A stretch of 64,000 nt of DNA, from NCBI GenBank assembly GCA_016935435.1, contig JAFGQZ010000043.1:16530-80529 (forward strand), given 5' to 3'. The notes under the pieces were generated by a model that searched no databases, had not been told where the DNA came from, and saw nothing but the letters and a program-made list of their open reading frames with translations. The translations under genes were made by a program, and so were the position numbers. Within the stretch, counting starts at the first letter, position 1. Each line of letters begins with the position of its first letter. The stretch comes from Bacteroidales bacterium. GTDB taxonomy: Bacteria > Bacteroidota > Bacteroidia > Bacteroidales > UBA10428. Of this stretch, positions 18,200 through 52,893 are shown in pieces.

Positions 18200-18234
18200 A
18201 AATACGACTTTAATTTTGTTTGGGCGAATATTTA

Positions 18235-18273: not shown

Positions 18274-18319
18274 AATCGTATTTTGGGGTAAGTATTTATA
18301 CTTATAGAGGGTTTGTGGC

Positions 18320-18493
18320 GGTTGGAAGTTCAAGGTTTAAAGTTTAAAGTTTAAAGTTCAAAGTTCAAGGTTTAAAGTTTGAAGTGAGCTGTGAACGGTG
18401 AACAGGGAAAAAAATCATACTTATCATTCATTAATTCTCTTCATTTTCTTCATTTTCTTCATTCACCTCAGCACCAGCCTCAACCTCAGCCTC
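18320..18493 (+). repeat. Composite dispersed repeat, copy 1 (8 heptamers + 37-bp core + 9-mer block + hexamer block)
   Basis: GGTTGG, 8 AAGTTYA-type units at 18326-18381, core AAGTGAGCTGTGAACGGTGAACAGGGAAAAAAATCAT at 18382-18418, TTCATTTTC units, ACCTCA-like units. Confidence 0.9.
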
Positions 18494-18519
18494 TAATTTG
18501 TTGCCGGAGCATTTAGGGA

Positions 18520-19032
18520 CTAAAGTACTTTTAATAATTTTGTGCATTTGTTTTTTAAGCCTGCAGAAGCATCTATTGTAACCGACTCCAAAATAGCCTT
18601 AAGTTCTGGTTTTATTTCGGGGTATTTTTTCACCACTTTGAAAAGTATATCAATAGAAAAAGCCCTTATTGCAATTGCTTCGCCAGGTTCGCTTGCAAAA
18701 CGGAAACAGATATCGGCAAGTTCGCCCAATTGTTCCTCATCGATAAATACCTTTGTTTCCAGAAGGACTTTAAGTGTACAACGTTTCACCCCATCGATTT
18801 TCGACTTTAACAAAGTGTTTATAAGTGTTTGAATGTGTGGCCTTAACATTTCGGGATATTTTTCGGCAGAAAGCTGAACAACCCTGGCCGCCCGCATCGA
18901 AAGCGGATATTTGTCTGCCAGCATTAAAGCCAATGCCTGGTCGAACAATTCCTGGCTTTTGCCTATGTTCGTCACAACAATGTCGGCAATAACTCTCGAC
19001 GAATCAATCAGTTGTTCTTCAATGGCACCCAT
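18520..19032 (-). CDS. Conserved hypothetical all-helical (HEAT/ARM-like) protein
   Basis: 170 aa; LSMRAARV, EAIAIRAFSIDIL, SAGLKNK pattern typical of small Bacteroidota HEAT-like proteins. Confidence 0.6.
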   Translation of the reverse strand: MGAIEEQLIDSSRVIADIVVTNIGKSQELFDQALALMLADKYPLSMRAARVVQLSAEKYPEMLRPHIQTLINTLLKSKIDGVKRCTLKVLLETKVFIDEEQLGELADICFRFASEPGEAIAIRAFSIDILFKVVKKYPEIKPELKAILESVTIDASAGLKNKCTKLLKVL

Positions 19033-19079
19033 ATTAAAAATTTTGTAAATTAGTTGCTAAAATTACATGATTTACCATT

Positions 19080-19346
19080 ATGATGAAAGTATGGACACCT
19101 ACCGAACGCGAAATAGAAAACACAAAGGCCTGGGGCAACTGGAGCAAAGAGGTTTCGGAATTTCCCTGGTTTTACGATGACCAGGAAACCTGTTTTATAC
19201 TTGAAGGCGAAGCCGAAGTAAGCGATGAGAAAGGCAATATAATACGTTTCAAAGCTGGCGATATGGTTCAGTTCGAAGAAGGCCTGGAGTGTGTTTGGAA
19301 AATTACAAGGGCAGTAAAAAAGCGGTATATTTTTGGCGAGGGATAA
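19080..19346 (+). CDS. Cupin_3 / EutQ-like cupin
   Basis: 88 aa; WSKEVSEFPWFYDDQETCFILEG, FKAGDMVQFEEGLECVW. Confidence 0.88.
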   Translation: MMKVWTPTEREIENTKAWGNWSKEVSEFPWFYDDQETCFILEGEAEVSDEKGNIIRFKAGDMVQFEEGLECVWKITRAVKKRYIFGEG

Positions 19347-23206: not shown

Positions 23207-23427
23207 TTTGCAAGTTAGCCTGTTTAATTAACCCCGTGAAACCCATCGATAGCCCACGGTTTATGAATTTCATTTATTGGCCCTGTTATTATTGGCGGCC
23301 AACTTCCAAAGATACCGAAATGCCCAAAGTGAAATTAACAATTGGGTAAAAACAAATCAACAAAAGTTGGCATTCAAAAAAGTTTTCGGTTAATTTGAAC
23401 CAACCTCAACTTAGGCACAAAAAGTAA

Positions 23428-24054
23428 ATGACCAGACAAGAACAATTAAAATACTGTAAAACATGCCAAAACCGTGGGTTTAATACCCGGAAAGGCATAA
23501 TTTGCGGCCTCACAGGAGATATTGCCGGTTTTGATGTTCATTGCCCCCATTATCAGATCGACGAACGAGCCCAATCGCTTGAGAGGTATATAAAAGAAAA
23601 TGCCCCCTTGCCAAAGCCGGTAAAAATGAAAAAACAAAAAACAAAACAATCGGCAAAATTATCGAGAAACGAAACAGTTGTTCTTATAGGGTTGGCACTT
23701 TTGGCAGCTTTTGTTTTCAGGCTTTCTATATATATTAAGTATAGTTATGAGAGCAAAAATATCACCTCTTTTTTATGTGTTGTACTATTTGTGTTTACTG
23801 CTTTGGCATTTTTATTAAGGAAAAAGGCTTTCAAAACATTCTCAATAACAAGCAGCCTGATGTATAACCTGTTATTTGCTGCTTTTTTTTCGCTAATTAA
23901 CCTGATATACATGTTGCTAGTATATCCCTTTTTTTACAAAATGTTATTGCTTCCTTTCCTAATTGTCATATTATCGTTTGCACTGGGAGTTTTAAGCTAT
24001 ATAATTGTAATACCCCCGGGTATTTTACTCTCAAAATGGTTTTCAAAAAAATGA
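23428..24054 (+). CDS. Hypothetical membrane protein with an N-terminal Cys-rich putative zinc-binding segment
   Basis: 208 aa; CKTC...C...CPHY, a basic linker and 4-5 hydrophobic helices. Confidence 0.7.
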   Translation: MTRQEQLKYCKTCQNRGFNTRKGIICGLTGDIAGFDVHCPHYQIDERAQSLERYIKENAPLPKPVKMKKQKTKQSAKLSRNETVVLIGLALLAAFVFRLSIYIKYSYESKNITSFLCVVLFVFTALAFLLRKKAFKTFSITSSLMYNLLFAAFFSLINLIYMLLVYPFFYKMLLLPFLIVILSFALGVLSYIIVIPPGILLSKWFSKK

Positions 24055-27017
24055 GCAGGTTTAATAAAATATTCATTGGCACCGCATTTTTTTTATTAGT
24101 TCTTTTAGGATTGATAGAGAAAGACGTTTTTATTAAACGCGGCATAATAACCTGGAACAGCACGATACCTGTTACATGGGCCGATTTCAGGGGCTATCCG
24201 AACCTGCTTTCGCAATATTCGGCCGCCATTACCAGCTATTTTACTGTTGAAACCTTTGGAAATACTATCGATTCGGTAAAAGTTGAAACCATCATGCTCC
24301 CACATCATTCTTGGGTAAGAAATTCCAGTTTAGAATGGGATTATGGCTTAAGACACGAGCAATATCATTTTAATATAAGCGAAGTACTTGCCCGGCAATT
24401 TAGAAAAGTTATAAAAGATTTACCTGAGGCAAACAGGAATGAAAAGGAAGTTCAGGCATTGTTCAAACAATTCAGCAAAGAACTTGGCAGGGTACAGGAT
24501 AAATACGACGATGATACCGACCACAGCATCTTAATTGAAAGGCAAAAAGACTGGGAATACCTTATCGACAGCATGTTAAATGAATATTCGTATTATGCTT
24601 GCCCTCTTATCAGTTTTAAAAGTGAGGAAGAAATACAAAGCAACAGGTTCCGGCAGATAACTCTCAATGCTCGCCATGAAATCGAAGGCATCTTTCCACT
24701 TGATTCACATACAGCCGCTTGTTCAAAGCATTATTTGTTTACATACGAAGGCGCTAAAATTAAAAAGATTGAGTTTTTTGACAGGGGCAAACCATCTATT
24801 GACGATAACCTGGATGTTTCAGCGGTTAATTTCAGTTACAACGGTAACACAGAGGTACGCAGTTATTTATCGCCCAATGGCGAAAATATGGCCACCCCTG
24901 CTGGTGTGTTTTACTCCCAAATTGAAAAGGCCAATAAACAAATTATTGTTACAAACCTCGACCACAACGGCCTGCCTGTTGAAAATACCGATGGAATTGC
25001 AAAAGTTGTTTGGGAACTCGACTATAAGGATCGGAAAACAACAGGAAGGCTATATAATAAAAACAACATGCAGATAACCGATAATGAAGGTTTTACTGTA
25101 GTGAAATATAAATATGGAACAAATGATAAAATTATCGAATATGCAAATTTCGACTACAATAACAAATTGTGCAATTTGAAAAACGGTGTTGCCTATTATA
25201 CCTATCAGTATGATGAAAAGAATAATGTCGCACGCATAAATGCATACAGCAGCAGTGACAAGCCACAAGCCTATTCAGGTAAAGTATCATCTGCATGTTA
25301 CCACTACGATATAGATGGAAATATTGTTCGTCAGCATTTTATTAAACCCGATGGCAACATATTTATCGACGATAAAGGAATTGCAATATCGTATTTTGAA
25401 TATGATAAATACGCCAATATTACCGATGAAAGGCATTATGGCACTAACAAAAACCTGATAATTTCGGAAAGCAAAACCGGGCGTTTAAAAAGAAAATACG
25501 ACCTGCGGGGAAACATTACCAAAGTGGAAAACTTCGATGCATACGATCAATTCCTGAACGATGCCAGCTTTGTGTGCAAAAAACAATTTTCATATAACCT
25601 AAACCAACAGCTTATCGAAGAGCAGCAATTTACTTGCGACAGTGCTAAATCAATATTACATTTAAAAACAATAAAATATTTTTACGATGACAAAGGCAAT
25701 ATTATTGCTGAGAAATATTTTAACCAGTTAAACAAACCTCTGGCCGATTCTGCGGGTGTGTATATGAAAAAGTTCACATACGACCATAAGAACAGGCTCA
25801 TACAAACAGAATTCCTGAACGAGAAAGAAGCCCTTACCCCCGGAGAATCGGGAATTGCCGTTTATAAATATAAATACGGATCAAATGATAATATTGTTGA
25901 AGTGCGGTTTTTTAATGAGAACCTTTTGCCAACAGGGAACGAGGAGAATATAGCAATGGAAAAATACGTTTATGGCCAAAACAGCCTTATGGCCGAACGC
26001 AGTTTCTATGACATTGACTATAAACCTACAGCATGTTCAAACGGTTTTCAATCGGTTAGTTGGCAATATAACGCAAAAAAAAATATAATTAAGGAATCGT
26101 ATTATGATAAACACCTAAAACCGGCAGCCGACAATTCCGGGATATCGGTATATGAATATGAATACGATTCTAACAACAACAAAACAATTACCAGGTGTTA
26201 CAACCGGCAATTGCTACCAGCTAAAGATGAAAATTATGGCATAGCAGTCATTCTCAACGAATATTCCGATGAAAACCAATTGATTTCGACATCATATTAT
26301 AACTATTGCGGTATTCTAAAAAATACTTCGGCGGGTTATGCAATCGAAACTTTCGGGTACAATAACCGCGGACTGGTTACCCGCAAAGATTATTATTCCG
26401 AGTTTAAACAACCAATAGTTTCGACCTTCGGATATGCTGCAATTGAGTGGCGCTACGATAACAACAATAATACTATTGGCGAATTGTATTTCGATGAAAA
26501 TAACCAGCTCATTGCTGATAAAGATGGGTATGCTGCTTACAACTGGATTTATGACAGGAATGGAAACTCAACATCGGGCTTTGGTTTTGAACCAGTTGAT
26601 ATTGAAGAACTAGGTTTGAACGAAGGGCCTTTTATGGAAACGGTAACCGGTATCTATCCAGATTATAATTACAACCCTTCGACCGGCGCAAGCACAAGGC
26701 TCCAGACAACCTACCACAATAACGGTCAAAAAAGTACCGAGGTGTTGTATATCCATGGTAAGCCGGAAGGGACTTATACCTCATGGTATAAGAACGGACA
26801 GGTTGAGTCTTTGGTTGAATATAAAAACGGGCAGCGAAATGGTTTAATGGTTGAATATAATAAAAGTGGCCAGAAAATAAGGGAATTGCTCTATCGCAAT
26901 GGTGTTTTGGTAAGCCAATCTGAAATTACCTGGCACGATAACGGGCAACTTCGCTCTAAGTATATGAACGGCGAACGCGTGGAATGGACAGAAAACGGTG
27001 AGATTATAACCGACTGA
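24051..27017 (+). CDS. Membrane-anchored or secreted protein: DUF922-like HExxH peptidase domain + about 17 32-aa YD-like repeats + MORN-type repeats
   Basis: N-terminal hydrophobic helix, LTWADF-like (VTWADFRG), LRHEQYHF; regular Y(D/G/N)xxxN repeats; C-terminal YHNNGQ/WYKNGQ/WHDNGQ repeats; ATGA overlap supports start 24051 (alternative 24036). Confidence 0.75.
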   Translation: MSRFNKIFIGTAFFLLVLLGLIEKDVFIKRGIITWNSTIPVTWADFRGYPNLLSQYSAAITSYFTVETFGNTIDSVKVETIMLPHHSWVRNSSLEWDYGLRHEQYHFNISEVLARQFRKVIKDLPEANRNEKEVQALFKQFSKELGRVQDKYDDDTDHSILIERQKDWEYLIDSMLNEYSYYACPLISFKSEEEIQSNRFRQITLNARHEIEGIFPLDSHTAACSKHYLFTYEGAKIKKIEFFDRGKPSIDDNLDVSAVNFSYNGNTEVRSYLSPNGENMATPAGVFYSQIEKANKQIIVTNLDHNGLPVENTDGIAKVVWELDYKDRKTTGRLYNKNNMQITDNEGFTVVKYKYGTNDKIIEYANFDYNNKLCNLKNGVAYYTYQYDEKNNVARINAYSSSDKPQAYSGKVSSACYHYDIDGNIVRQHFIKPDGNIFIDDKGIAISYFEYDKYANITDERHYGTNKNLIISESKTGRLKRKYDLRGNITKVENFDAYDQFLNDASFVCKKQFSYNLNQQLIEEQQFTCDSAKSILHLKTIKYFYDDKGNIIAEKYFNQLNKPLADSAGVYMKKFTYDHKNRLIQTEFLNEKEALTPGESGIAVYKYKYGSNDNIVEVRFFNENLLPTGNEENIAMEKYVYGQNSLMAERSFYDIDYKPTACSNGFQSVSWQYNAKKNIIKESYYDKHLKPAADNSGISVYEYEYDSNNNKTITRCYNRQLLPAKDENYGIAVILNEYSDENQLISTSYYNYCGILKNTSAGYAIETFGYNNRGLVTRKDYYSEFKQPIVSTFGYAAIEWRYDNNNNTIGELYFDENNQLIADKDGYAAYNWIYDRNGNSTSGFGFEPVDIEELGLNEGPFMETVTGIYPDYNYNPSTGASTRLQTTYHNNGQKSTEVLYIHGKPEGTYTSWYKNGQVESLVEYKNGQRNGLMVEYNKSGQKIRELLYRNGVLVSQSEITWHDNGQLRSKYMNGERVEWTENGEIITD

Positions 27018-38771: not shown

Positions 38772-41156
38772 CTACCTGCCAATGCCACCGCCTTTGGTGT
38801 CGCTTTCTATTTCCGACTTGCGTTCGGTTTTCTTAATGGCCCTTCCTTTGTTAAATTTATACGAATACATAAGCTGTATAAACCACGAAGCATCGAACGA
38901 CACCTTGTTCTCGGAATATATCTGAGGCGTTTCGGTAATGGTTTTGCTAAACACTACTTCATTCGACAGTGGCAACAAATAAAAAATACCGTATGAATGG
39001 TTTTTTATGTTTTGCTGGGCACCAAACCCATAAATCAGGGCCGAATAAAATTTGCTTTGTCCGCTAATGTTTACCCCGTTATAGTTTATAAAGGCAAAGG
39101 CATTAATTTTTGTCTTGAACACCGGGGCATACACAAAACTATTTAACCTGAAAGAGAAGTAGTCGTTTTCATCAATATGAGTCAATGAGTCGGTATAAGC
39201 ATTGTAGTGCCCCTGGTAAACACTTCCGTTAATATTAAACGACCATAGGGTGGTATTTAGCCCGAGGCCACGCTCGTAACCTGTAAGCACGTTCCCGGGC
39301 ATGTTGTATTTCACGTAATTATCGGACAAGGGCGAACTTTTTAGTACCGAAATATTTGCAATTTTATCGGAATAATATTCCTGGTAGATATATGGCGAAA
39401 AGTTTATCTTTTTGATATTCAGTGTGTAAGTCAACTGTAGCCGATCTTTTATTTCGGGTTCCAGGTTTTGGTTTCCCGAGCTCACCGAAAGGTCGTTTTC
39501 AAGTTTCTCAAACGGGTTAAGGTTGTATATATCCGGACGGTTAATCCGGCGGTTATAGGTAAACTTTAAGTTTTGTTTTGTTGAGAATTTATACATCAGG
39601 TTTGCCGAAGGAAGAAATGCTGAATACTGCGAAGGTATTTCCTTATTAATGTCAATCTGGCTGTTTTCAACGCGCAGGGTGGTTTGGGCCGAAAAATCCT
39701 TCAGGTTCCAGAAAAAGCTGGCATAGGCAGCATTTCTTATTTCAGAATAGATATAATTGTCCCTTGGAATGCTGTTGTATTCCGAATTGTAGTCCATGCC
39801 CTGCCAGTAAAACTGGTACCCGCCTTCGAGCCGCATTGAAACACCAATCGGTTGTACATAGTCGGCCTTTGTGCTGAAGTATTTTCTGTGGTTTACAGCT
39901 AGCTCATCACGTTCGTTCGAAAACATAAGGGTATCGGGGTTGCGGTGGTACAGGCCGAAAAAAAAGCTGTTGTTGTCGGTTGAGTTGAAGAAATAGTAGT
40001 TCGATTCCACTGTAAACTCCTGAATGGGCTTTTTATATTTTTTTCGGTAAAACAGAGAAATGTTCGATTCACCGCTATTTGACGATAAACTGTTTTCGCT
40101 GGCATTAGAAAAATTATGCAGGTTGTTTACCATGATATTGCCGGTATTAGCCAGTTCGTTTGACATTTGAAAAGGCTTATAGCTGTAATTAATGCTGATA
40201 TTGTTTTTTTCGTTATAATAGTAATCGAAACCAGTATTTATTGCAGATGCAGATATGCTAAAATCGCCATTTCCCCGGATGCTCACCGAAGAATCGACAA
40301 ATTCGGAGTTTCTCGGTATAGTTATTTGCTGATAATCGGTATTATTGCTGTTCAGGTTTTGTACAAAAGTATAACCCGACACGTAAAATGTTATTTTTTC
40401 GCGACCATAATCGAGGCTGGCCATGCTGCCCAGAGTAGCCTTGCCAACAGGCTTGGCCTGAACCCCGAAGTTGCCGTTGATACCTACACGGGCTTCCTTT
40501 TTCAGCACCACATTAATTACCCCTTCTATAGAGCCATCGTATTTGCCCGAAGGGTTATGGATAATTTCGACCGACTCTATATCGCCGGGCAATATGCGGG
40601 CAAGAAATTCTTTGTCGCGCTGCTTGCCATCGACCTGTATAATAAAATTGCTTTTGCCGTTTAGGGTAACATTATTGTTAAAATCGACCTGCACCGAAGG
40701 TATTTTTTTGAGCACATCGTACCCGTTTGTCGAAGTTTTTTCGATTTCGGGCAGTATTTCATAAACAGTGCGATCGACCAGCTCCTTGGCCCTTATCAGG
40801 TCGCCCTTGACCACAACATCATCAATTTGGTTTGTTCTTTCTGTTAAAAAAATGGTGTCGGCAATAACCACTGTCTGCCCTTCGTTAACCTCAATTGCTA
40901 TGCCTCCGCTATTATACCCCACAAACGACGATTTAATATAGTATTTACCGGGCTTGATATTATCGGCCGAATACTGTCCGTCGGGATACGATACTACCCC
41001 TTTGGCCATTACCGAATCGGGCAGGTTAAGAATTAGCACATTGGCAAACTCCACCGGCTTGTTGTCGGGCAAAGAAAACACGTATCCCTTTACAGACTGG
41101 GCATTGGCCAAACAGGAAAAGGAAAATGCAAGAATCAGAAATTGTATTTTTTTCAT
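38772..41156 (-). CDS. Outer-membrane beta-barrel / TonB-dependent receptor-like protein with an N-terminal carboxypeptidase-regulatory-like domain
   Basis: 794 aa; signal peptide, PVEFANV, IDDVVV, IESVEIIHNPSGKYD plug-like segment, RRINRP barrel motif. Confidence 0.8.
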   Translation of the reverse strand: MKKIQFLILAFSFSCLANAQSVKGYVFSLPDNKPVEFANVLILNLPDSVMAKGVVSYPDGQYSADNIKPGKYYIKSSFVGYNSGGIAIEVNEGQTVVIADTIFLTERTNQIDDVVVKGDLIRAKELVDRTVYEILPEIEKTSTNGYDVLKKIPSVQVDFNNNVTLNGKSNFIIQVDGKQRDKEFLARILPGDIESVEIIHNPSGKYDGSIEGVINVVLKKEARVGINGNFGVQAKPVGKATLGSMASLDYGREKITFYVSGYTFVQNLNSNNTDYQQITIPRNSEFVDSSVSIRGNGDFSISASAINTGFDYYYNEKNNISINYSYKPFQMSNELANTGNIMVNNLHNFSNASENSLSSNSGESNISLFYRKKYKKPIQEFTVESNYYFFNSTDNNSFFFGLYHRNPDTLMFSNERDELAVNHRKYFSTKADYVQPIGVSMRLEGGYQFYWQGMDYNSEYNSIPRDNYIYSEIRNAAYASFFWNLKDFSAQTTLRVENSQIDINKEIPSQYSAFLPSANLMYKFSTKQNLKFTYNRRINRPDIYNLNPFEKLENDLSVSSGNQNLEPEIKDRLQLTYTLNIKKINFSPYIYQEYYSDKIANISVLKSSPLSDNYVKYNMPGNVLTGYERGLGLNTTLWSFNINGSVYQGHYNAYTDSLTHIDENDYFSFRLNSFVYAPVFKTKINAFAFINYNGVNISGQSKFYSALIYGFGAQQNIKNHSYGIFYLLPLSNEVVFSKTITETPQIYSENKVSFDASWFIQLMYSYKFNKGRAIKKTERKSEIESDTKGGGIGR

Positions 41157-41396: not shown

Positions 41397-42323
41397 TTAA
41401 GGCAATGCAACAATTTCGCTGTCGCTGTTTATTTCAATAGGTATTTGCATCGACATGCCCTGGGCGTTTACACTCATTTCGCCTTTCATTTGTTGCTTGC
41501 TTGTGCCTTTAATAACCCATCCCGTAGAGGTGTCAACAGTGATTTCCGATTTGCCTACACCGCGGATATCGGGAATAATTTCAGCCCCGTGCATGTTCAT
41601 AGGTTTGCGGCCCGATTCAATAACTAAGTCACCGGCAATTTTTGCCTGGTTCCCATCTATAGCAGAAAGCAGAAAAGCCGAGGAAACATTCATGTCCATA
41701 CCGCCTGATGAAATAAGCAGGTTGGTTTCCCACTTTTCGTCCTTTTTTATTTCTTTACCGGGCAGGTAAGCTGTAACCGACTCAATCATGCTCTTAATTG
41801 CTCCGGGCTGTACCATGTTTTTTGCCTGGGTTTTAATAATTTCGGCCATAGGTCCCTGTACCGAATCGATTCCCTGCAAAATACCAGCAGAAGCTGTCTC
41901 TAAGTTCATAATTTCAATAACATGTCCGGTACCAGCAAATTTGACCAGAAAAGTGCTGTTGCTCAGTCGGTTCATAATACATTCCATAACTTTCGATATA
42001 TCAGACGAATTCAAATCGCCGGGGCGCGAAGAGTTTATTTCCATCGGGGGCATGCTAACAAGGGTAATAATGGTATCGAACCGCACTTCGGCAATAAAAG
42101 CACCCTCAATATTTTTTAAGGGTTTTAAAGATAACACCACCGAATTATTGGTCTGGACCGACTGTTGCATGCCCTGCACAGTTTGGGTTGTGTTTTGTAC
42201 ACTGGTGTTTTTTACACGGTAGGATTTTTGAATCTCGAGATTGTACTTTAAATCGGCCTGGTTTTGGGCCGTAAGGCTAAAAACAGAGAATAGCGCAAGG
42301 GATAATACGATAAGGTTTTTCAT
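41397..42323 (-). CDS. Secreted beta-rich hypothetical protein (DUF6263-like)
   Basis: 308 aa; signal peptide; LKYNLE...Q.V.G.Q pattern, W..G beta motifs. Confidence 0.6.
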   Translation of the reverse strand: MKNLIVLSLALFSVFSLTAQNQADLKYNLEIQKSYRVKNTSVQNTTQTVQGMQQSVQTNNSVVLSLKPLKNIEGAFIAEVRFDTIITLVSMPPMEINSSRPGDLNSSDISKVMECIMNRLSNSTFLVKFAGTGHVIEIMNLETASAGILQGIDSVQGPMAEIIKTQAKNMVQPGAIKSMIESVTAYLPGKEIKKDEKWETNLLISSGGMDMNVSSAFLLSAIDGNQAKIAGDLVIESGRKPMNMHGAEIIPDIRGVGKSEITVDTSTGWVIKGTSKQQMKGEMSVNAQGMSMQIPIEINSDSEIVALP

Positions 42324-42557: not shown

Positions 42558-43043
42558 CTACATCCGGTTTTGTCCTGGTTTTTTTTCGTGAATATAGCCA
42601 ATAATTCTTTGGACACACCCATCAAAGTCTTCTTTAAGCCCCTTTTCCCAAAAACGCATTACATGCCAGCCATTATCAATGAGTAATTGGTTGTTCTGCT
42701 TGTCGCGCTGCATGTTCCTTTCGATTTTTGGTACCCAGAAAGCACGGTTGGTTTGGATTTTTTCTTTCTTCTCCTGCCAGTTAAATCCATGCCAGAACTC
42801 ACCATCTACAAATATTGCCAGTTTGTATTTTGGATATACAATATCTGGCTTTCCGGGCAAAGAAGTTAAATTTTTTCTATACCGGTAACCAAGTGCCCAA
42901 AGCGCCCTTCTTAGCTTTAACTCTTGCTTTGTATTTTTAGACTTAATTTTTCGCATAAGCCCCGATCGCTGCTTTGTAGTGTAAAAGCCATTTTTTTCAT
43001 TAAACCTGGGCACAACTATATGATTGTCTGAATATTGCTTCAA
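42558..43043 (-). CDS. vsr: Very short patch repair endonuclease
   Basis: RSGLMRKIKSKNT, LPGKPDI, FVDGEFWHG, FWVPKIERNMQRD, GWHVMRFWE; adjacent to a C5 methyltransferase. Confidence 0.95.
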   Translation of the reverse strand: MKQYSDNHIVVPRFNEKNGFYTTKQRSGLMRKIKSKNTKQELKLRRALWALGYRYRKNLTSLPGKPDIVYPKYKLAIFVDGEFWHGFNWQEKKEKIQTNRAFWVPKIERNMQRDKQNNQLLIDNGWHVMRFWEKGLKEDFDGCVQRIIGYIHEKKPGQNRM

Positions 43044-43103
43044 AATTAATAATTGTTAATAATTAAAAGGCCAAATTAGGCTATTATGATTAATAAATAA
43101 AAC

Positions 43104-43144
43104 TAATTTTGTAACCATGTGTAATGTTGTTTAATGTGGTTACA
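43104..43144 (+). promoter_or_regulatory. MTase promoter with an overlapping inverted repeat (candidate autoregulatory operator)
   Basis: TAATTTTG at 43104-43111; TGTAACCA-N19-TGGTTACA at 43110-43144. Confidence 0.55.
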
Positions 43145-43146
43145 TA

Positions 43147-44379
43147 ATGGAAAAACTATATTCAATCTCGGAAGTTGCAGATTTACTTTCTGTTAGCAAA
43201 GAAACCCTGAGGCGCTGGGACAAAAGCGGGAAACTGACAGCAGTACGTGAGCCCATGAGTAATTATCGTGCTTATCGAAAGGATCAGCTTAAGATTTTTG
43301 AAAGCCTTGATTTTCTCTTTGCCCCAACAGAGGAAAATAATGAAACAATTGCAAACAGGGATTTTAACGCTATTGAATTATTTGCCGGGGCAGGCGGGCT
43401 GGCTATTGGGTTAGAAGAAGCAGGAATAAAGTGTTTGGCCCTGAATGAATTTGATCATTGGGCTTGCGAAACCCTTAGAAAAAACAAACCCAATTGGAAC
43501 GTTATTGAGGATGATGTTAAAAACATTTCATTTTCACAGCTAAACGGAAAAGTGGATATTGTAACCGGAGGCTTTCCTTGCCAGGCTTTTAGCTATGCCG
43601 GCAAAAAATTAGGGCTTAACGATGCACGGGGCACTTTGTTTTATGAATTTGCAAGGGTAGTGCAGGAGACAAACCCTGCAATTTTTATTGGGGAAAATGT
43701 GCGCGGTTTGCTCACACATGAAAATGGCAGGACGATAGAAGGCATGATTTCTATATTGGATGAAATTGGGTACAACGTAATAACCCCACGAATTTTTAAA
43801 ACAATCTTTTATAAAGTCCCGCAAAAAAGGGAAAGGGTTTTAATTGTTGGTGTAAGAAAAGATTTAAACCATCATTTGTTTGAATTCCCAAAACCCTATA
43901 AGAAAGTTTACACACTAAAAGATGCCTTAAAAAAAGGCGAATTGTATAATTGTGATGTTCCTGAATCGGCAGGCTCAAAATATCCCAAAAGCAAGAAAGA
44001 AGTGTTAGACCTGGTTCCTGAAGGAGGATATTGGAGAGATTTGCCCATTGAGATACAAAAGCGTTACATGGGAGGCAGTTACCATTTAGGAGGGGGCAAA
44101 ACTGGAATGGCAAGACGGATGAGCTGGGCAGAACCAAGCTTGACCCTCACTTGCAGCCCTGCCCAGAAACAAACAGAGCGTTGCCACCCGGAAGAAACAA
44201 GGCCCTTTACAGTAAGGGAATATGCAAGGATACAAACATTTCCCGACAGTTGGGTTTTTGCTGGCTCCGTATCGCAACAATACAAACAAATAGGCAATGC
44301 GGTGCCTGTTAATTTTGCTAAAGAAGTCGGATATTCAATTATTCGGTTCTTAAATAAGGTTTATCCTAAACAGAACTGA
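43147..44379 (+). CDS. dcm: Type II DNA (cytosine-5)-methyltransferase with an N-terminal MerR/excisionase-like HTH (Eco47II/Sau96I-like)
   Basis: SISEVADLLSVSKETLRRWD HTH; LFAGAGG, GGFPCQ, ENV, QKRER, QIGNAVP. Confidence 0.93.
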   Translation: MEKLYSISEVADLLSVSKETLRRWDKSGKLTAVREPMSNYRAYRKDQLKIFESLDFLFAPTEENNETIANRDFNAIELFAGAGGLAIGLEEAGIKCLALNEFDHWACETLRKNKPNWNVIEDDVKNISFSQLNGKVDIVTGGFPCQAFSYAGKKLGLNDARGTLFYEFARVVQETNPAIFIGENVRGLLTHENGRTIEGMISILDEIGYNVITPRIFKTIFYKVPQKRERVLIVGVRKDLNHHLFEFPKPYKKVYTLKDALKKGELYNCDVPESAGSKYPKSKKEVLDLVPEGGYWRDLPIEIQKRYMGGSYHLGGGKTGMARRMSWAEPSLTLTCSPAQKQTERCHPEETRPFTVREYARIQTFPDSWVFAGSVSQQYKQIGNAVPVNFAKEVGYSIIRFLNKVYPKQN

Positions 44380-44477
44380 TTTTTTCAGTTCAATAAATGA
44401 AATTCATATATAGAACAGGTTAAGGCTTAAAATATTTTTTATTTTTATGGTTTGTTTTCACATAAACCTTTAAGCCA

Positions 44478-45188
44478 ATGCCCTATTTAAATTGGATCCC
44501 AGATACAGGCCTGATTCATGAAGTAACACAATTGCTTTATATCGCTAAAAGCGCCCAAATATCGGCTATAAAGGAATTTGGCAAAAATGTAATTGACCCG
44601 TTTGCTGCCCTTTTTGAGATGTCGGGCTTTGAAATTGACTATACTACCTGGTTAAACAGCGAAACAACAAGACAGGCACAGAAAACACTACAAAACCATA
44701 TCGGCGACTTCCATCAAAACATACTTGGATATTCAAAAGACTGGACAAATAAGGGTGTAGGCAATATAATTGACTTGTTGTCGGATAAAAACAAGGTAAT
44801 AGCAGAAATTAAAAATAAATATAACACCATTTCGGGCGGAAAACTTTCCGATTTGTACTATTCCTTAGAAAAACAGGTAAGCCCAAAATCGAGCATTTAT
44901 AAGGGTTACACAGCATTTTATGTTGCAATTATACCTAAAAAGGGCGACCGGTACAATAAACCATTTACCCCTTCGGACAAGGACAAAGGCGAAAAATGCC
45001 CGGTAAATGAGCTCATCAGGGAAATTGACGGAGCAAGCTTTTACAGCCTGGTAACAGGTTCCGATACAGCTTTGGAAGATTTGTTCAACGTTTTGCCCGA
45101 TGTGGTAAAAGCATGTTCTGAGGATAAATATGTTATTAAAGACAAGAAAAAACTCAAAGAATTCTTTAACCTCGCCTATAAGCTTTAA
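44478..45188 (+). CDS. Type II restriction endonuclease, Eco47II family (predicted GGNCC)
   Basis: KNVIDPF, RQAQK...IGDFHQNI, IAEIKNKYNT; directly downstream of the C5 MTase. Confidence 0.8.
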   Translation: MPYLNWIPDTGLIHEVTQLLYIAKSAQISAIKEFGKNVIDPFAALFEMSGFEIDYTTWLNSETTRQAQKTLQNHIGDFHQNILGYSKDWTNKGVGNIIDLLSDKNKVIAEIKNKYNTISGGKLSDLYYSLEKQVSPKSSIYKGYTAFYVAIIPKKGDRYNKPFTPSDKDKGEKCPVNELIREIDGASFYSLVTGSDTALEDLFNVLPDVVKACSEDKYVIKDKKKLKEFFNLAYKL

Positions 45189-45189: not shown

Positions 45190-48100
45190 TTAATCCCATA
45201 CCTCAACCACCTTCATGTTGGTATTAGCATTCACTACCGGTACATACATTAACGAAACCTGTGCCGGGTTCAGGTGATATTTGCCTGTAAAACGGGGCAA
45301 TAGGTTAACCTGGAAAATGTATTTGCCGGTTTTCATATTTTCGCAGAACAGTACTGTGCGGTCGCTGAAATATTCGCGATGGGTTTCTACACTGTTTTGT
45401 GCCTGTCGCTTGTCGGCATAGCTGCATGCCCCGGGTATGGGCACTTCTATCATAACATGCTCGGCGCCTGCATCTTTAATAACTTCCACCTCAATATTAA
45501 GCACAACGGGTTCTCCGGCTTTTAGCTTGTTGCTTCCCGAAAGAAAGGAAGTATGTATTTTAAACCCTTCAACCCCGGTTTTTGCCTGTGTAACCCTTTC
45601 GTTGGTGTACTGAACGAAATAGAGCGGAACGCCACTGCTTTTATACACACTTAGTTTCTCCTTTTCTTTCAGAACCATGCGAAAAGGGAATTCCGATACT
45701 GTTTTGTTTTCTTTTCCAGCAAGGGCTACAGTCGCTACCTGTCTTTTTGACGATCGCCCGGCAATTATGTCGGGCAAGATACATTGAATTATATTGGCCG
45801 ACTGGTATGTGTTCCATGTACCATTTTTTCGCTGGCCCAGGAAATACAGCTGCATGGAAGCGCGCAAACCATGCAGGAGAGTGTCGTTCTTTATTAACCG
45901 GTAGGCAGCTGCATTGGCCAAAAGTGTATTGTTGTGCCAATATGCCGATGGCTTGTTGTCGGAGAAAAAGATTTCGCCTAATATCCCTTCTTTTCTGTAT
46001 TTCAGAAGGCTGTCGCGTTCATAACCGTTCGCGGTTATCTGCCGTATTTCCTGCAGCATTAATTTCTCGGTAAGCAAAGAATACCTGTATTCATATTTTT
46101 GGCCATACGCATCGGAGAAAAATTCCTTTTCCAAAAGAAGCGAGTCCATCACCTGCAGATACTCGCCATAGTCTATTGCAGCGCCCCAGGTGGCCAATGA
46201 ATGAAGCAAATCGATATCGTAAATCGAGAACGATTTCAGGAAATCGAACTGGTAAGTCGCTTTCCGGGCAATGTTTTCGATGTTCAGAGGGACATCGTAA
46301 CCGGCATCTTTGGCACATTTTAATGCCCGGAGAATATGGGCTGACATCCAATGCGAAGTATTGCCCGTAACATTCCACCACGACCATAAAAACTCCCGGT
46401 TCTGGTTTTTCAGCAAGCGTTTAACAATATCGTTCACGTTTTTGTCGTATTTAAACGCCTTGCCTTCGTATTGCATCAAAAGCTTATAATTAATTAAGCC
46501 TACGAGTTTTGAGGCAAGCTGTTCGTTACAATCGTAACGGTAATGAAGCAGGTTATATGCCTCCCCTGCATAAATATCGAGCTGGCTGCTCAATATTTCA
46601 ACAGTAAGTGTTGTGTTTTCAGGTGCTTCGATATGCAGGCTGTCGCCATTTTGCAATACAGAAAGCGAACCTTCGGCCCTTTCGGTGCCCTGCTCAATTA
46701 CCCTGACGGTGCGTTCTTCGCCATCGGTATAGCCATCGTTGCGGGTAAATACATAACGTGTGGTAATTGAGTCGGCAGTTGCTGCATAAACCGGCAGTTT
46801 ATCGGTGCGATACTGCCCGAAAGCAACATTTCGAACAAAAGCATTGCCTGTACCGCTCCAGTTTACCGTTCCGGAAATTGTGCTGTCGGTAGTATAGTTT
46901 AACAATTTCCCCAGGAAAAAGGCCGAATCGCCCCTTGCAAGGAAGTTAGGAACATGGAGTTCTGCCATAAGTGGCTTGTACGATTTTATGGTCTTGCGTG
47001 CCGTGCCGGTATGAAGGTTGCGGTTCATGGCGTAAACTAAAGCGTCCCAGCGGGTAATATCATCGGGAAAGGTTACTGTAAATTTCGATTCGCCTTTTCT
47101 GTCGGTATATAAGCGTGGCTCCCAAAAGCCTACATCGGAAAACGACGATCGGATACTTTTTAGGTTCAGCAGTTCCTGGTAAAGCCTGTTTTCGGCATCG
47201 GTATCGGTTATATCTGTTGTTTTAGTTTCTTCATCCATTATGTCGGGAGCAATGCTGCTTTCGCCACTAACCCTCGAAACGGCTCCTGTTAGCATACTTT
47301 TATGTTGTACGCCATAACCGATTACAACAACCTCTTCGAGGGCAGAAATGTCGGGGGTCATCGACAACATTACTTCAGAACCTGCCGAAACTTCAATTTC
47401 TTCCATTAAATAACCGATAAAAGAAACCACCAGGGTTGCCGTAAAATCATCAATTTGCAGCGAGAAGCGGCCATCGATGTCGGTAATTGTTCCTTTCTGT
47501 GTCCCTTTTATTACAATACATGCTCCCGGCAGGGGATCATTGTTCTCATCGAAAATAATGCCGCGTATATTTCCCGGGCTGCTTGCCTGGATATATTCGT
47601 ACCTTGGCGAGGGTTTATTATCTGTGGCGTTACTGTAACAATTGTAATTTCGCCCCGGAAGGTTGAGCACCAATCGCGATGAAAACGTATCGGGCCGACA
47701 AATGGGCAAATAACCAAAGTCGGCAACCAGGGTTGAATGCCTGCTTATATCTACACTGTCCATTTGCAAATATGTGCCATTGTTGTATAAAACAATAATT
47801 CTGTAAAAACCCCGGGGCAAGGCGAAAAATTCGAGTTTGCTTTGATACTGGTTGTCGAAACAGGGCGACAGTATTGCTTTGCTCTCACAATTTTGAAAAT
47901 ACAGGTTGAATACCCCTTTGCCGGTAACCTCTTGGGGCAGTATAATTTTTATTCTCGATTCCGGGGCCACAATATCGATGGTTTGTGGCTGCCATATAAT
48001 GCCACCTGAAGCTTGCCGTTCAAGAAAGCGTTTTTTGTTCATAACCCGGTCGTTCACATTCAGCATGGGGTTGAATGGTTTGCCATCCAAATACCCAGGC

Positions 48101-50718
48101 AAAAGGTTCGAAGCCGTGAGCTTATACACAATATTGTCTTCAAAAGCATAAGAAAACCCTCCTGTATGGGTGTAAACTATCTGGTATGAGCCATTCAGGG
48201 AATATGTTTTCTTCCCCTGTAGTGAGGGGCCAATACTTAAGGTACCATAACTAGTGTACTTATTGTTATAAACATTATACAGTGGCAGAAACTCTTTTTC
48301 CGATTCCAGCCAGGCATAGCTGCCGTTGGAATAATTTACCGATGACATTAGAGGTTTGTAGCGGTTTCGCTCAACAGGGGTCAGTTGGTTCGAAAGCTTA
48401 ATTTCCTGAGAATATTTTTTCAGGCTGTTCATATCAAAACTAATAACGGTTTTCTTTCCTGCTTCGAACATCAAAGAGTCGAGCACAACAACCCTGTCGT
48501 TTAGCCGCAGGCTTATAGAATGTTTCTGGTTGGGGGAAATATAAAACGAATATTCTTTTGGCCTGTTGGCCCATGAAAAATATACGGGGTTGCGATCGAC
48601 TTCAATTACATAAATTGGAACGGCCATACCATTTTGCATAATGTAGGGGGCAAACTGGGTACTGTCGTTACTATCGAAAAGATAAACAAACGGCTCCCTG
48701 CCCGGATAGGTAAACTGGTAATAAATCATGGTGTCGAGCTGAAAGAGGTTATGCCATTTTTGGTAGTTTAGCTTAATAACTGCGGATCGGGAGTTTATGT
48801 CGTTTTTGGTAAAATGTGCACTTTTTGGCCGCGGTATCGAACTGCTTCCATAGTAGGGCAGGTCGGGCAAGTGGTAGTTAAGCTTACCGGTAACCGCCAA
48901 AGCAGTAAGATCGACCCCACTAACCGGATTTCCCAGCTGGTTGGTAACACGTATTTCCGCATCGATGGTTTGGCCGGGGTAAACCTTATCGGGAACGTTG
49001 AGGGTAACATCCAGGAACTCTTCCCTGAAAACAAAAGGGAAACGCTTTATTTGATCCTGTCCCCCGAAAGTGTAAATAAGTTCAACGTAATAAGTTTTCA
49101 GCCTGTTTTCTATGAGCGAACGAAATTCAAACTCTTTGCCAAAACCCTTCTTTAAAAGTTCCGCTCCCTGGTAAACATACCACGAAACATCGAGTTGATG
49201 AGGGTTAATGAGCGATATGTTAAAACTGTCTTTTTGTATTCCACCCGATAATTCAATTTTGGGGCTTATATGGGCCAGGTTAAAAATGCCTGATTTATAA
49301 TAACAGCTAAGCTTTATTGATGAAACCAGTGGGTTTATTTTTTCTTTATAAGGGAAAACTATGGCAAAACTGTCGGGATTGTTGTTGTAAGCAATACAGC
49401 CCGGCACATTTGTTAATGGTTCGCCGTTTTTTATGATGTCGAAACATATACTGTCGTTTGAAAGTTTGTTTATTAGTTCGTACTGCGAATAGAAAAAATC
49501 TGCCGAAACAGTTTGCTCCATGCGTTGGTACTGAGTGTTGAGCACAACCACCTGCACTTCGTACCCGGTATTCGACATCTGGAATAAACCAGGAAGAATT
49601 TCAACCGTGGTAGGTTTTGCCGGATCGAGATCGATTTGAAAATAACTCAATGTGTCGGGCAGTATGATAAGGGGCTGAAAAGTTTTTGAAATGTTCCTGG
49701 TGCGCACCAGAATAAAAGCTTTCGCATCTTTGAGCAACAATCCGTTTATGTCGGTTGCTGTAATGGTAATTTCGTTTTTTGCCGGAAAATAGTGTTTTGT
49801 GTTGGTTATCTGAACATTGAGTTTATTGCCGGTAAGTTCATAATCTTCGTACATAAAACTGCAATTTGAAACCATCTTACCGTTTTTTTCGCGCAATTGA
49901 AGGTTGTATGTCTTGTCCAGCACAAGATTAAGCGAATCGTGCAATTGTAATTCCCCGGCATAGCTGCCCGGCCTGTGGGGCTTTATCTTGTTGAGTTTAA
50001 TGTTTTTTTTATACCCCGACACCCATACTTCAAGCTCACGGCGCAGGGGAAATTTATTGCCCGACAATGCATACGATTTGAACCGCAACATATCGTTTGG
50101 CCTGTATTTGTTCTTGTCGGTAATTAAGTAACTATAGAACGAAGGGCTTTGGTAGTGGCTGTATGCGCTATGCCATTCCGGCACATCGTGCTTTACAATC
50201 TGGAACACCGACCGGAAACCGTCAAGTTCAACAGTTGCAAATTGATTTTTTGCATTGATCCACTCGTTTTCGAGCCTGTAAGTTTTGCTTTCGGGGTCAG
50301 GGCGCAGGCGTTTATATTTAAGTTTTACTTTTGCATCGGTGCGCACATTCCCACTGAAATCGGTTACCTGCAACGAAAGTGCCCCATATTCCCTGAACAG
50401 GAAAACCTGGTATGGAAAAACTCCCGTATAGGAGCAATGCAGCTTGTTCCCTTCAACCTTTACCAAAACAAAATGCCCTTTCGGGCAATGGTTTATCCAT
50501 CCTTTTTCAACTTCGAACGAATCGACCAGGTTATACAATAAACCATCGAAAACAGTATCGGGTTTTGCCCTTGTTAGTAACTTTTGTGCTTCTTTGTTTG
50601 TGATTTGAAAAACCAGTCCTTTTTGAGGTGCATTGCCCCAGTTAACCGGCTGGGAAAAAGAACTTAGGTGAATAAGAATAATATACCCTGCTGCAAATAT
50701 TCTGGAAATAGTTTTCAT
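45190..50718 (-). CDS. Bacterial alpha-2-macroglobulin family protein with an inserted carboxypeptidase-regulatory-like (SusC N-terminal) domain
   Basis: 1842 aa; TDKNKYRP (MG2), FWEPRLYTD..FPDDITRW (A2M), CNEQ thioester motif at 46519-46530, C-terminal EVPIPG/REYFSDR. Confidence 0.88.
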   Translation of the reverse strand: MKTISRIFAAGYIILIHLSSFSQPVNWGNAPQKGLVFQITNKEAQKLLTRAKPDTVFDGLLYNLVDSFEVEKGWINHCPKGHFVLVKVEGNKLHCSYTGVFPYQVFLFREYGALSLQVTDFSGNVRTDAKVKLKYKRLRPDPESKTYRLENEWINAKNQFATVELDGFRSVFQIVKHDVPEWHSAYSHYQSPSFYSYLITDKNKYRPNDMLRFKSYALSGNKFPLRRELEVWVSGYKKNIKLNKIKPHRPGSYAGELQLHDSLNLVLDKTYNLQLREKNGKMVSNCSFMYEDYELTGNKLNVQITNTKHYFPAKNEITITATDINGLLLKDAKAFILVRTRNISKTFQPLIILPDTLSYFQIDLDPAKPTTVEILPGLFQMSNTGYEVQVVVLNTQYQRMEQTVSADFFYSQYELINKLSNDSICFDIIKNGEPLTNVPGCIAYNNNPDSFAIVFPYKEKINPLVSSIKLSCYYKSGIFNLAHISPKIELSGGIQKDSFNISLINPHQLDVSWYVYQGAELLKKGFGKEFEFRSLIENRLKTYYVELIYTFGGQDQIKRFPFVFREEFLDVTLNVPDKVYPGQTIDAEIRVTNQLGNPVSGVDLTALAVTGKLNYHLPDLPYYGSSSIPRPKSAHFTKNDINSRSAVIKLNYQKWHNLFQLDTMIYYQFTYPGREPFVYLFDSNDSTQFAPYIMQNGMAVPIYVIEVDRNPVYFSWANRPKEYSFYISPNQKHSISLRLNDRVVVLDSLMFEAGKKTVISFDMNSLKKYSQEIKLSNQLTPVERNRYKPLMSSVNYSNGSYAWLESEKEFLPLYNVYNNKYTSYGTLSIGPSLQGKKTYSLNGSYQIVYTHTGGFSYAFEDNIVYKLTASNLLPGYLDGKPFNPMLNVNDRVMNKKRFLERQASGGIIWQPQTIDIVAPESRIKIILPQEVTGKGVFNLYFQNCESKAILSPCFDNQYQSKLEFFALPRGFYRIIVLYNNGTYLQMDSVDISRHSTLVADFGYLPICRPDTFSSRLVLNLPGRNYNCYSNATDNKPSPRYEYIQASSPGNIRGIIFDENNDPLPGACIVIKGTQKGTITDIDGRFSLQIDDFTATLVVSFIGYLMEEIEVSAGSEVMLSMTPDISALEEVVVIGYGVQHKSMLTGAVSRVSGESSIAPDIMDEETKTTDITDTDAENRLYQELLNLKSIRSSFSDVGFWEPRLYTDRKGESKFTVTFPDDITRWDALVYAMNRNLHTGTARKTIKSYKPLMAELHVPNFLARGDSAFFLGKLLNYTTDSTISGTVNWSGTGNAFVRNVAFGQYRTDKLPVYAATADSITTRYVFTRNDGYTDGEERTVRVIEQGTERAEGSLSVLQNGDSLHIEAPENTTLTVEILSSQLDIYAGEAYNLLHYRYDCNEQLASKLVGLINYKLLMQYEGKAFKYDKNVNDIVKRLLKNQNREFLWSWWNVTGNTSHWMSAHILRALKCAKDAGYDVPLNIENIARKATYQFDFLKSFSIYDIDLLHSLATWGAAIDYGEYLQVMDSLLLEKEFFSDAYGQKYEYRYSLLTEKLMLQEIRQITANGYERDSLLKYRKEGILGEIFFSDNKPSAYWHNNTLLANAAAYRLIKNDTLLHGLRASMQLYFLGQRKNGTWNTYQSANIIQCILPDIIAGRSSKRQVATVALAGKENKTVSEFPFRMVLKEKEKLSVYKSSGVPLYFVQYTNERVTQAKTGVEGFKIHTSFLSGSNKLKAGEPVVLNIEVEVIKDAGAEHVMIEVPIPGACSYADKRQAQNSVETHREYFSDRTVLFCENMKTGKYIFQVNLLPRFTGKYHLNPAQVSLMYVPVVNANTNMKVVEVWD

Positions 50719-51840: not shown

Positions 51841-52893
51841 ATGAAAAAAATCTACCCATTGATTCTGGCAACAATGTTTTGTACACAGCTTTTTGCCCAG
51901 AAAAGTATTTTATTTGTTAGCGCAAATGCGCCCGATGCCGATGCCACTATCCAAAAATTTATCGAACAAATTGAATCGATAGAAGGCTTTAGTGTAACCC
52001 ATAAACTTTTAGCCGACTACAAGCTTATGACTGCTGCCGAATTTGGGGCATTTGATGCGGCAGTTTTATCTGAGAACGGGGGCTCGGCCGATTATGTTAC
52101 GATAGGCAACGAAGGTTGGCCCATTGCGGTATTAAACCTGAAATCGTACATGAACCACAGGCCAACCAGTCCGCTTTATGCTGCCCAGGCCGATGTTGAC
52201 TGGTTTTTACACCGGACTTATGATATTGCTGCCGGTGCTTTGACTATGTATGTTGAAAACAACAACGATATTCTTTGTAATTATACCGAGGGCTCCGAAC
52301 TTGTGTGGTCAACCGGTACCGACGGCACCCCTTCCATAACCGATGCCCACTGCCAGACTTTCAACCTCGAAAAATCAACAGTAACCGATGTTGCCGGAAA
52401 TGCTATTTTGTTGGGGTCGATAAAAGAATTGAAAGACGGGGGCGAAAATACTTCGGCATTTCTCTGGAAAATAAACGAAAACAATACAACCAAACGAACT
52501 GTTTTATGGGGCATTCACCATGGCTTTATCGGAGAAGGGAATGCTACCGCCGATTTCTGGAAGGTGATCAAAAACTCAATTGTTTGGTTAACCGGCGGAT
52601 CGCCCTGCTCATCGACCGCACTAAAACCAGTTTTGGAAGAAACCAATGATATTACGGTATTTTGTTCATCGATTTCTAAATATGCCTCTGTTAACTTTAA
52701 ACTGAATGTACCGCAAACCTCTAACATTCAGGTAATGGATATTTCCGGAAAAATTGTTTATAGTCAGCTTTTAAATGGCAATGCCGGCTCGAACGAAATA
52801 TCCTTTAGCACCAATAGCTTTGCATGCGGCTTATATATTGTTAAACTAAGTGCAGGACACCAGATACTGACAGAAAAATTCATAGTACGATAG
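51841..52893 (+). CDS. T9SS type A sorting domain-containing protein, N-terminal domain unknown
   Basis: Signal peptide; C-terminal VMDISGK...GLYIVKL...TEKFIVR. Confidence 0.85.
   Translation: MKKIYPLILATMFCTQLFAQKSILFVSANAPDADATIQKFIEQIESIEGFSVTHKLLADYKLMTAAEFGAFDAAVLSENGGSADYVTIGNEGWPIAVLNLKSYMNHRPTSPLYAAQADVDWFLHRTYDIAAGALTMYVENNNDILCNYTEGSELVWSTGTDGTPSITDAHCQTFNLEKSTVTDVAGNAILLGSIKELKDGGENTSAFLWKINENNTTKRTVLWGIHHGFIGEGNATADFWKVIKNSIVWLTGGSPCSSTALKPVLEETNDITVFCSSISKYASVNFKLNVPQTSNIQVMDISGKIVYSQLLNGNAGSNEISFSTNSFACGLYIVKLSAGHQILTEKFIVR

Follow-up and report, generated by a model that had tools for sequence, protein, structure and literature searches.

A 64,000-nucleotide stretch of the genome of a Bacteroidales bacterium (GTDB lineage Bacteroidota; Bacteroidia; Bacteroidales; UBA10428; assembly GCA_016935435.1, contig JAFGQZ010000043.1, positions 16,530 to 80,529 of the forward strand; hereafter the window) contains, on its reverse strand, a gene for an exported thioester protein of the alpha-2-macroglobulin (A2M) family. 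What appears to be new here is the bait loop of this protein, where an N-terminal extension (NTE) of the SusC type is combined with a TonB box and a remnant of a plug domain, the module being under strong constraint; the A2M fold itself is of a known kind. Current understanding of bacterial A2Ms comes from two lipoproteins of enterobacteria whose bait is simply disordered, and the Bacteroidota clade described here departs from them. The coordinates of the features are collected in Table 1.

A SusC-type insert in the bait loop of a thioester A2M

Residues 1051-1132 of the window protein match the Pfam model CarbopepD_reg_2 (PF13715) with an E value of 3.9e-19, and residues 1051-1154 match positions 3-105 of the 981-position NCBIfam model for SusC/RagA transporters (TIGR04056) with an E value of 1.2e-33. 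Both matches lie well outside what chance would produce. At 116.6 bits, the insert falls far below 368.25, the cut-off for the full-length family. When the whole protein was searched against the sequences of the Protein Data Bank (PDB), a SusC homologue came out on top (8aa4_A, residues 33-133; E value of 2e-16), in an alignment that extends through LDEVVVVGYGTMKKSDLTGAVSSV. LEEVVVIGYG of the window protein aligned with LDEVVVVGYG of 8aa4_A, and the TonB box so placed is equivalent to 82-DEVVVTG-88 of the transporter Bt1763. In Bt1763 the TonB box (81-VDEVVV-86 / 82-DEVVVTG-88) was identified by mutation, and in the nuclear magnetic resonance (NMR) structure of the NTE it is flexible and lies outside the fold (PMC7782687). 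When compared with the N termini of about 17 SusC-sized open reading frames (ORFs) of its own genome, the insert is 40-50% identical. Pfam returned no match in the window protein to the Plug domain (PF07715) at E values up to 0.1 and none to the transporter barrel (PF00593); the TonB box is followed by a 15-residue stub whose consensus in the window family, LTGxV..SGRVAGVxI, looks like a fusion of two plug motifs of SusC. With SusC/RagA transporters (TIGR04056; Bt1763, 8aa4, 5t3r; NTE structures 6ytc and 9hfj), the window protein shares PF13715, the motif [DE]EVVVxGYG and LTGAVS, the residues with which the plug begins, but it has neither the Plug nor the 22-strand barrel, and its module is internal (near residue 1050) rather than N-terminal.

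To place this insert relative to the bait, we relied on a transitive alignment through a canonical A2M paralogue encoded on another contig of the same genome (C71). Alignment with hhalign of the family profile to this paralogue set window residues 1179-1205 (LYQELLNLKSIRSSFSDVGFWEPRLYTD) on C71 residues 1138-1165, which form the end of the stretch between the A2M_BRD and A2M domains, and the same C71 stretch (GGDMDFRQQQLNPEKGRRR) aligned with residues ~905-925 of the chain of ECAM, the A2M of E. coli. It is this segment that the ECAM papers name as the bait (PMC4498604). Because residue 1179 onward meets the end of the C71 bait, and the C71 bait meets that of ECAM, window residues 1024-1178 are placed at the bait position; Pfam gave no match to PF07703 in the window protein. 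A preliminary description of this DNA had reported, at 47270-47576 on the reverse strand (residues 1048-1150 of the ORF), a SusC/RagA-like N-terminal segment with an LEEVVVIGYG linker and had located it at the bait position. The peptide that it quoted is present exactly as given, and the alignments agree with the location, the insert lying inside the bait region and not outside it.

Within the loop, the NTE is followed by the TonB box, the 15-residue plug remnant, an acidic disordered stretch and a post-bait helix, and these elements differ sharply in how far they are constrained. Over 102 full-length homologues, the frequency of the top residue is 0.36 in the linker before the NTE (residues 1024-1050; 20-32 residues long), 0.62 in the NTE (1051-1122; 71-73), 0.86 in the TonB box (1127-1136; 10-11), 0.51 in the plug stub (1137-1151; 11-29), 0.31 in the acidic stretch (1152-1174; 11-46, with 33% aspartate plus glutamate), 0.83 in the post-bait helix and its motif (1175-1205; 31) and 0.80 in the A2M domain (1198-1285; 88), against 0.65 for the whole protein (1-1842). 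In 98 homologues, TonB-box residues E1129 and V1132 are invariant, as are the C, N, E and Q of the CNEQ thioester motif and the L, M and Y of the LMY motif in the C-terminal bMG10 domain. Judged by these figures, the TonB box is constrained as strongly as the thioester and catalytic core. In an AlphaFold2 (AF2) model the NTE is folded, with predicted local distance difference test (pLDDT) values of 70-80. The acidic stretch is likely to be the protease-sensitive bait proper; it makes a better candidate for the actual bait than does the NTE or the TonB box.

The window protein is an A2M-fold thioester protein. The AF2 model, which covers residues 643-1842 and was built from a 40-sequence alignment (mean pLDDT of 76; predicted template modelling score, pTM, of 0.49), consists of beta-sandwich domains, an all-helical thioester domain (TED) and a C-terminal beta-sandwich; in the macroglobulin (MG)-like region, strands at fragment residues 30-380 have pLDDT values of 80-94. 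When this model was compared with the PDB by Foldseek, the top matches were Salmonella A2M (4u48; E value of 2.4e-33) and ECAM (5a42; 3.5e-31), both with a probability of 1.0, together with the further ECAM entries 4ziq and 4rtd, in a range extending to 1e-29, and human A2ML1, CD109, TEP1 and complement C3/C5 occupied the next ranks. TM-scores were low (0.2-0.3), which is what one expects of a flexible multidomain model with a pTM of 0.49. In Salmonella A2M (SaA2M) and ECAM, an ExMY motif equivalent to the LMY motif of the bMG10 domain shields the thioester (PMC4498604). A thioester-less A2M of the MagD or E. coli YfaS type was considered and is ruled out, the CNEQ motif being present and invariant.

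The signal sequence of the protein ends in a signal-peptidase-I pattern, which argues for a soluble exported protein. In 83 of the 102 full-length homologues the signal ends in [ASG]Q (AQ in the family consensus) and is followed by a conserved I-x-W-N, and inspection of residues 1-60 of the window protein found no cysteine. The protein is thus exported without a lipid anchor, and a periplasmic location is probable. The genes flanking it encode an OMP_b-brl_2 protein and an Eco47II restriction enzyme, and pbpC, the gene for PBP1C, is not among its neighbours. The preliminary description was therefore right that the thioester motif is intact, that the signal peptide has no lipobox cysteine and that there is no adjacent pbpC. 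ECAM (YfhM) and SaA2M (5a42, 4ziq, 4rtd and 4u48) share with the window protein a multi-MG scaffold, an A2M domain, a CxEQ motif in a helical TED and the M-Y motif of MG10; the putative bait of the window protein, like theirs, would be situated between a BRD-type MG domain and the A2M domain. They are its closest structural matches, yet the sequence similarity is very weak (phmmer E value of 0.004 for ECAM) and is confined to the TED. Unlike these two proteins, the window protein has neither a lipobox nor a pbpC partner, and a folded NTE occupies its bait loop together with a TonB box and what is left of a plug.

A widespread family, its plug-containing sister clade and its paralogues

The preliminary description had treated this arrangement as a singular oddity, whereas it proves to characterize a large conserved family of Bacteroidota. 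In a set of 5.8 billion proteins, 908 pass an E value of 1e-3, and all of the best 120 of these homologues (53-64% identity) carry both PF13715 and PF00207. When 1.84 billion representatives were searched by phmmer with residues 1155-1842, a query from which the NTE is excluded, 7439 matched, 813 of them at an E value of 1e-30 or better. Our own hidden Markov model (HMM) detected the NTE in 129 of the best 149 representatives (33-65% identity), with [DE]EVVVxGYG directly after it in most of the 129; those without an NTE are mostly fragments. In public annotation the family appears as 'carboxypeptidase-like regulatory domain-containing protein' or 'alpha-2-macroglobulin'. That the gene is a pseudogene or an assembly chimera is ruled out by the intact frame and by more than 100 homologues with the same architecture.

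The distance that separates the NTE from the post-bait motif falls into two modes, one of ~64-90 residues (the window type, with about 30 representatives) and one of ~124-175 residues (about 95). In the latter group, Pfam recognizes a Plug domain (PF07715) that follows the TonB box and precedes the post-bait motif, and it is because this larger group has the Plug that we regard the window protein as the plug-less form of a wider design in which a SusC front end is set into the bait. Members of this sister clade (P0151, P0157, P0172, P0147 and L031:7298-13228 on the reverse strand) are ~1960-2150 residues long, have MG2 matches near residues 260-330 and in some cases carry two or three copies of the NTE. 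P0151 and P0157 have the same scaffold, thioester and bMG10 domain as the window protein, with the NTE and TonB box at the same site, and are 33-40% identical to it over the C-terminal 688 residues; in the window subfamily, however, the acidic variable stretch stands in place of the Plug. Set beside the sister clade, the window insert is apparently a shortened version of a more complete SusC front end, which consists there of NTE, TonB box and Plug. A tree of the C-terminal region recovers the window subfamily as one contiguous group, with one exception, and places the root between this subfamily and the plug clade; the topology is therefore silent on the ancestral state. The fused plug motifs suggest that the plug was lost in the window subfamily. 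A tree of the NTE segments of the A2Ms and the SusCs of the same genome gave no resolved grouping and is silent on single versus repeated capture.

The distribution of the family is patchy. A survey with the C-terminal 688 residues found a relative of either type in at least 5 of 401 genomes of the phylum and in at least 12 of 61 relatives, one part of this survey having scored two candidates per genome, so that its count is a lower bound. Another survey, queried with the insert plus the A2M domain, was swamped by SusC N termini and gave no usable prevalence figure. At least two orthologues exist in the same genus (64-67% identity).

Three A2M paralogues are present in the genome, namely the window protein, the C71 protein and one encoded on contig C34. 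The C71 protein is followed directly by a PBP1C gene, which is the only one in the genome to score above the family cut-off, and the two constitute a canonical pair of the ECAM type. The C34 protein represents a second class of A2M, and its bait reads IDEVIVTGYGTQKK, which is to say that it contains a SusC-type TonB box without any NTE. Seven ORFs of the genome bear TonB_C domains. One 608-residue ORF (C38, ~22350-24170, reverse strand) begins with a region that contains HExxH and is similar to M56/BlaR1, continues with two TonB_C domains and ends in a domain of the CarbopepD_reg type; it can be likened to TonB10 of B. thetaiotaomicron with an added NTE-like domain.

The TonB box as a putative ligand and competing explanations

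Our leading account, which we hold tentatively, is that the window protein may be a soluble, probably periplasmic thioester A2M whose bait loop derives from a SusC front end and which is linked to TonB as a ligand. According to this account, proteases would cut the acidic variable stretch, springing the trap and exposing the thioester as in ECAM, and the NTE and TonB box would serve as a ligand for TonB by pairing a beta-strand with the TonB C-terminal domain, by analogy with the transporters. TonB would then hold the anchor-less trap where TonB works, beneath the outer-membrane transporters, and such tethering would stand in for the lipid anchor that A2Ms of the E. coli type possess; the binding could be either constitutive or established only after bait cleavage. 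Consistent with this, the TonB box is more strongly conserved (0.86) than the NTE (0.62), the acidic stretch (0.31) or the protein as a whole (0.65). Group B colicins and pyocins are soluble proteins with TonB boxes, and TonB can thus engage ligands that are not barrels. Those proteins differ in being imported toxins that use the box for entry and have no sequence relationship to the window protein, which is endogenous and exported and has its box in an internal loop.

The comparative evidence leans towards a TonB-related role that would belong to the module itself, because the same module heads a family that has neither bait nor barrel. In one relative (G431, C4:3492000-3511999; locus L031), a six-gene cluster at 7298-19294, all on the reverse strand, encodes in order an ECF (extracytoplasmic function) sigma factor, a FecR anti-sigma factor, a barrel-less protein of 399 residues with STN and CarbopepD_reg_2 domains, a GldM-like protein, an NTE-headed VWA protein and a plug-type A2M. 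The VWA protein (L031:13282-15213; 643 residues) consists of an NTE, the sequence LDEVVVVGYG, and vWF_A, VWA and YfbK_C domains. Like the window protein it is barrel-less and exported and carries a SusC-type NTE, a TonB box and an LTGAV stub; it differs in that its module is N-terminal and the remainder is vWF_A/VWA/YfbK_C instead of A2M. Among its best 120 homologues (P0390-P0509), which belong to the VWA/YfbK (DUF3520) family, PF13715 is present in 117, and in 87 a TonB-box motif is followed by an LTGAV-type stub, with no barrel. This family is very widespread in Bacteroidota and bears the JGI label 'Ca-activated chloride channel homolog'. Since these bait-less proteins carry it, the SusC front end can be viewed as a portable module of barrel-less exported proteins. 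PF13715 also occurs on TonB7 and TonB11 of B. thetaiotaomicron, where a role in forming the complex of TonB-dependent transporter, TonB and ExbBD was suggested by the authors (PMC10350073).

TonB-box strings recur in the second class of A2M. In the family of the C34 paralogue, annotated as YfaS, the bait is hypervariable; the full TonB-box motif occurs in 15 of 113 members and the core L-x-[DE]-V-V-V in 30 of 113, against 0.002 occurrences of the core expected per 75 residues elsewhere in the same proteins. A stricter regular expression finds the motif in 5 of 120 members, and many partial motifs are seen on reading the baits. These counts are inflated because the sequences are related and the motif is inherited. 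Taken together, the VWA/YfbK family and these strings suggest that the phenomenon may be general.

Several observations weigh against the proposal that the trap is a TonB ligand. TonB binding by the window protein is putative, and its placement in the periplasm is drawn from the signal peptide alone. Genes for TonB, ExbB and ExbD are not conserved neighbours at the inspected loci, no TonB_C domain was detected in 389 retrieved proteins with an HMM made from the TonB_C domains of the same genome, and in some members of the sister clade the TonB box is degenerate. Were an abundant periplasmic protein to display a TonB box freely, the box would be expected to compete with transporters for TonB, and exposure of the box would therefore need control. 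Both flanks of the NTE, including the TonB-box strand, have pLDDT values below 50 in the AF2 model and show no confident packing, so that the model is uninformative there. The NTE itself is a part of SusC whose role is not known, even though its deletion in Bt1763 abolishes growth on levan (PMC7782687).

An explanation that dispenses with TonB is that the 5' part of a SusC gene, brought into the bait loop by an ancestral recombination, would now supply only a spacer or an extra Ig-like domain of the cage, with EVVVIGYG conserved for packing within the molecule. CarbopepD_reg is a promiscuous Ig-like fold that resembles MG domains, DSSP assigns a strand to residues 1129-1135 of the AF2 model, the genomic neighbourhood offers no conserved component of a TonB system and the plug seems to have been lost in the window subfamily, all of which would suit such a structural role. 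Nevertheless, the TonB box holds the exact SusC consensus across deep divergence and recurs without an NTE in another class of A2M, AF2 gives it no confident packing, and in the NMR structure of Bt1763 its counterpart is flexible and outside the NTE fold (PMC7782687). We consider this explanation unlikely.

We regard as quite improbable a closer coupling of the trap to the TonB motor, which could take two forms. In the first, the box would stay hidden until cleavage of the bait unmasked the NTE and TonB box for TonB-ExbBD, which would seize the loaded trap for signalling, relocation or disposal; a cut within residues 1152-1174 would be expected to free both elements as a flexible tail. Human A2M, once activated, uncovers a cryptic site for receptor binding and so offers an analogue, of which a loaded trap seized by TonB would, if this form is true, be the bacterial counterpart. 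In the second, a pull exerted by TonB on this loop, or in the sister clade on the plug, would trigger the change and fire the thioester without proteolysis; the Plug that the sister clade retains is the element that TonB unfolds in transporters. The one relative whose plug-type A2M lies downstream of an ECF sigma factor, FecR and an STN-NTE protein would fit a signalling role. Taken more broadly, such coupling would make the SusC front end a portable tag by which periplasmic proteins that lack a barrel (A2M and VWA/YfbK) are connected to the TonB system. This coupling is, however, entirely inferential, and the sigma/anti-sigma context was seen at one of six inspected loci, which is not that of the window gene.

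Also improbable, and less favoured than the proposal of a TonB ligand, is that the NTE/TonB-box segment is itself the bait, mimicking the periplasm-exposed N termini of the cell's own SusCs so that an attacking protease is trapped: the module does lie inside the bait loop, resembles the SusC N termini of its own genome at 40-50% identity and has TonB-box counterparts in the second A2M class, where the bait is otherwise hypervariable, but it also heads the bait-less VWA/YfbK family, its folded Ig-like domain and highly conserved strand contrast with the disorder and variability of the known baits (PMC4498604), the neighbouring hypervariable acidic stretch fits the part better, and no protease specific for SusC N termini appears in the literature searched. 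That literature likewise held no paper linking a bacterial A2M to a TonB box or a SusC module.

If the module does bind TonB, as the proposal of a TonB ligand would have it, then transporters are not the only clients of TonB, and a defence protein of the periplasm could be positioned or triggered in a new way. The family would in addition allow the SusC NTE, which is essential in Bt1763, to be studied on a soluble protein free of any barrel.

Features and genomic surroundings

Table 1. Features of the window A2M gene, of its paralogues on other contigs (C71 and C34) and of the adjoining restriction-modification island. Coordinates without a contig name are window positions.
Feature	Coordinates	Strand	Residues	Basis or remarks
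Whole gene, protein P0001	45190..50718	-	1842 aa, intact ORF	exported thioester alpha-2-macroglobulin-family protein; ORF and translation, Pfam, Foldseek
Signal peptide MKTISRIFAAGYIILIHLSSFS, then Q	50653..50718	-	1-22	signal-peptidase-I type, lipobox Cys absent; putative cleavage site
N-terminal beta-sandwich (MG-like) region	47650..50652	-	23-1023	AF2 model covers aa 643-1023 of the region
Pre-insert linker	47569..47649	-	1024-1050	AF2 pLDDT <50 (fragment 382-406); poorly conserved
NTE (CarbopepD_reg_2, Ig-like, SusC-type N-terminal extension)	47353..47568	-	1051-1122; Pfam envelope to 1132	PF13715
TonB-box-like strand LEEVVVIGYG	47311..47340	-	1127-1136	alignment to SusC homologue
Plug stub VQHKSMLTGAVSRVS	47266..47310	-	1137-1151	15-residue remnant of first plug motifs
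Acidic hypervariable stretch	47197..47265	-	1152-1174	AF2 pLDDT 28-35; putative bait
Post-bait helix and motif AENRLYQELLNLKSIRSSFSDVG	47128..47196	-	1175-1197	conserved
A2M domain	46864..47127	-	1198-1285	PF00207; 58 bits, cut-off 21
Thioester domain (TED), all-helical	45763..46581	-	~1380-1652	AF2 helices, fragment 738-1010
CNEQ thioester motif	46519-46530	-	1397-1400	sequence
bMG10 domain, C-terminal, with conserved LMY motif	45238..45528	-	1731-1827	PF17973; 43.6 bits, cut-off 26.2
Canonical A2M paralogue	C71:1181-6646	+	1821 aa	lipobox LGVSC, thioester CIEQ, full bacterial MG/BRD Pfam set
PBP1C	C71:6648-8993	+		TIGR02073, 696 bits; directly after the C71 A2M
Third A2M paralogue	C34:3950-10171	-	2073 aa	CTEQ thioester; MG2, A2M_BRD, A2M, bMG10; lipobox absent
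Eco47II-family endonuclease	44478-45188			restriction-modification island; Pfam E value 6e-52
Apparent C5 cytosine methyltransferase	43147-44379			restriction-modification island; judged by eye
Vsr-like endonuclease	42558-43043	-		restriction-modification island

No conserved operon partner was found in the window, at two further loci (L011 and L012) or at six others. A restriction-modification island (42558-45188), which may mark a variable region, adjoins the A2M gene on its downstream side in convergent orientation. On the other side of the A2M gene, a 350-residue protein encoded at 51841-52893 on the forward strand has a Por_Secre_tail, the C-terminal sorting domain of type IX secretion; the organism therefore has a type IX secretion system. 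Such a sorting tail is absent from the A2M protein. Beyond the island, a TonB-dependent receptor not of the SusC type (38772-41156, reverse strand) has a CarboxypepD_reg N-terminal domain, a Plug and an OMP_b-brl_3 barrel, and a DUF6263 protein is encoded upstream of it on the same strand (41397-42323).

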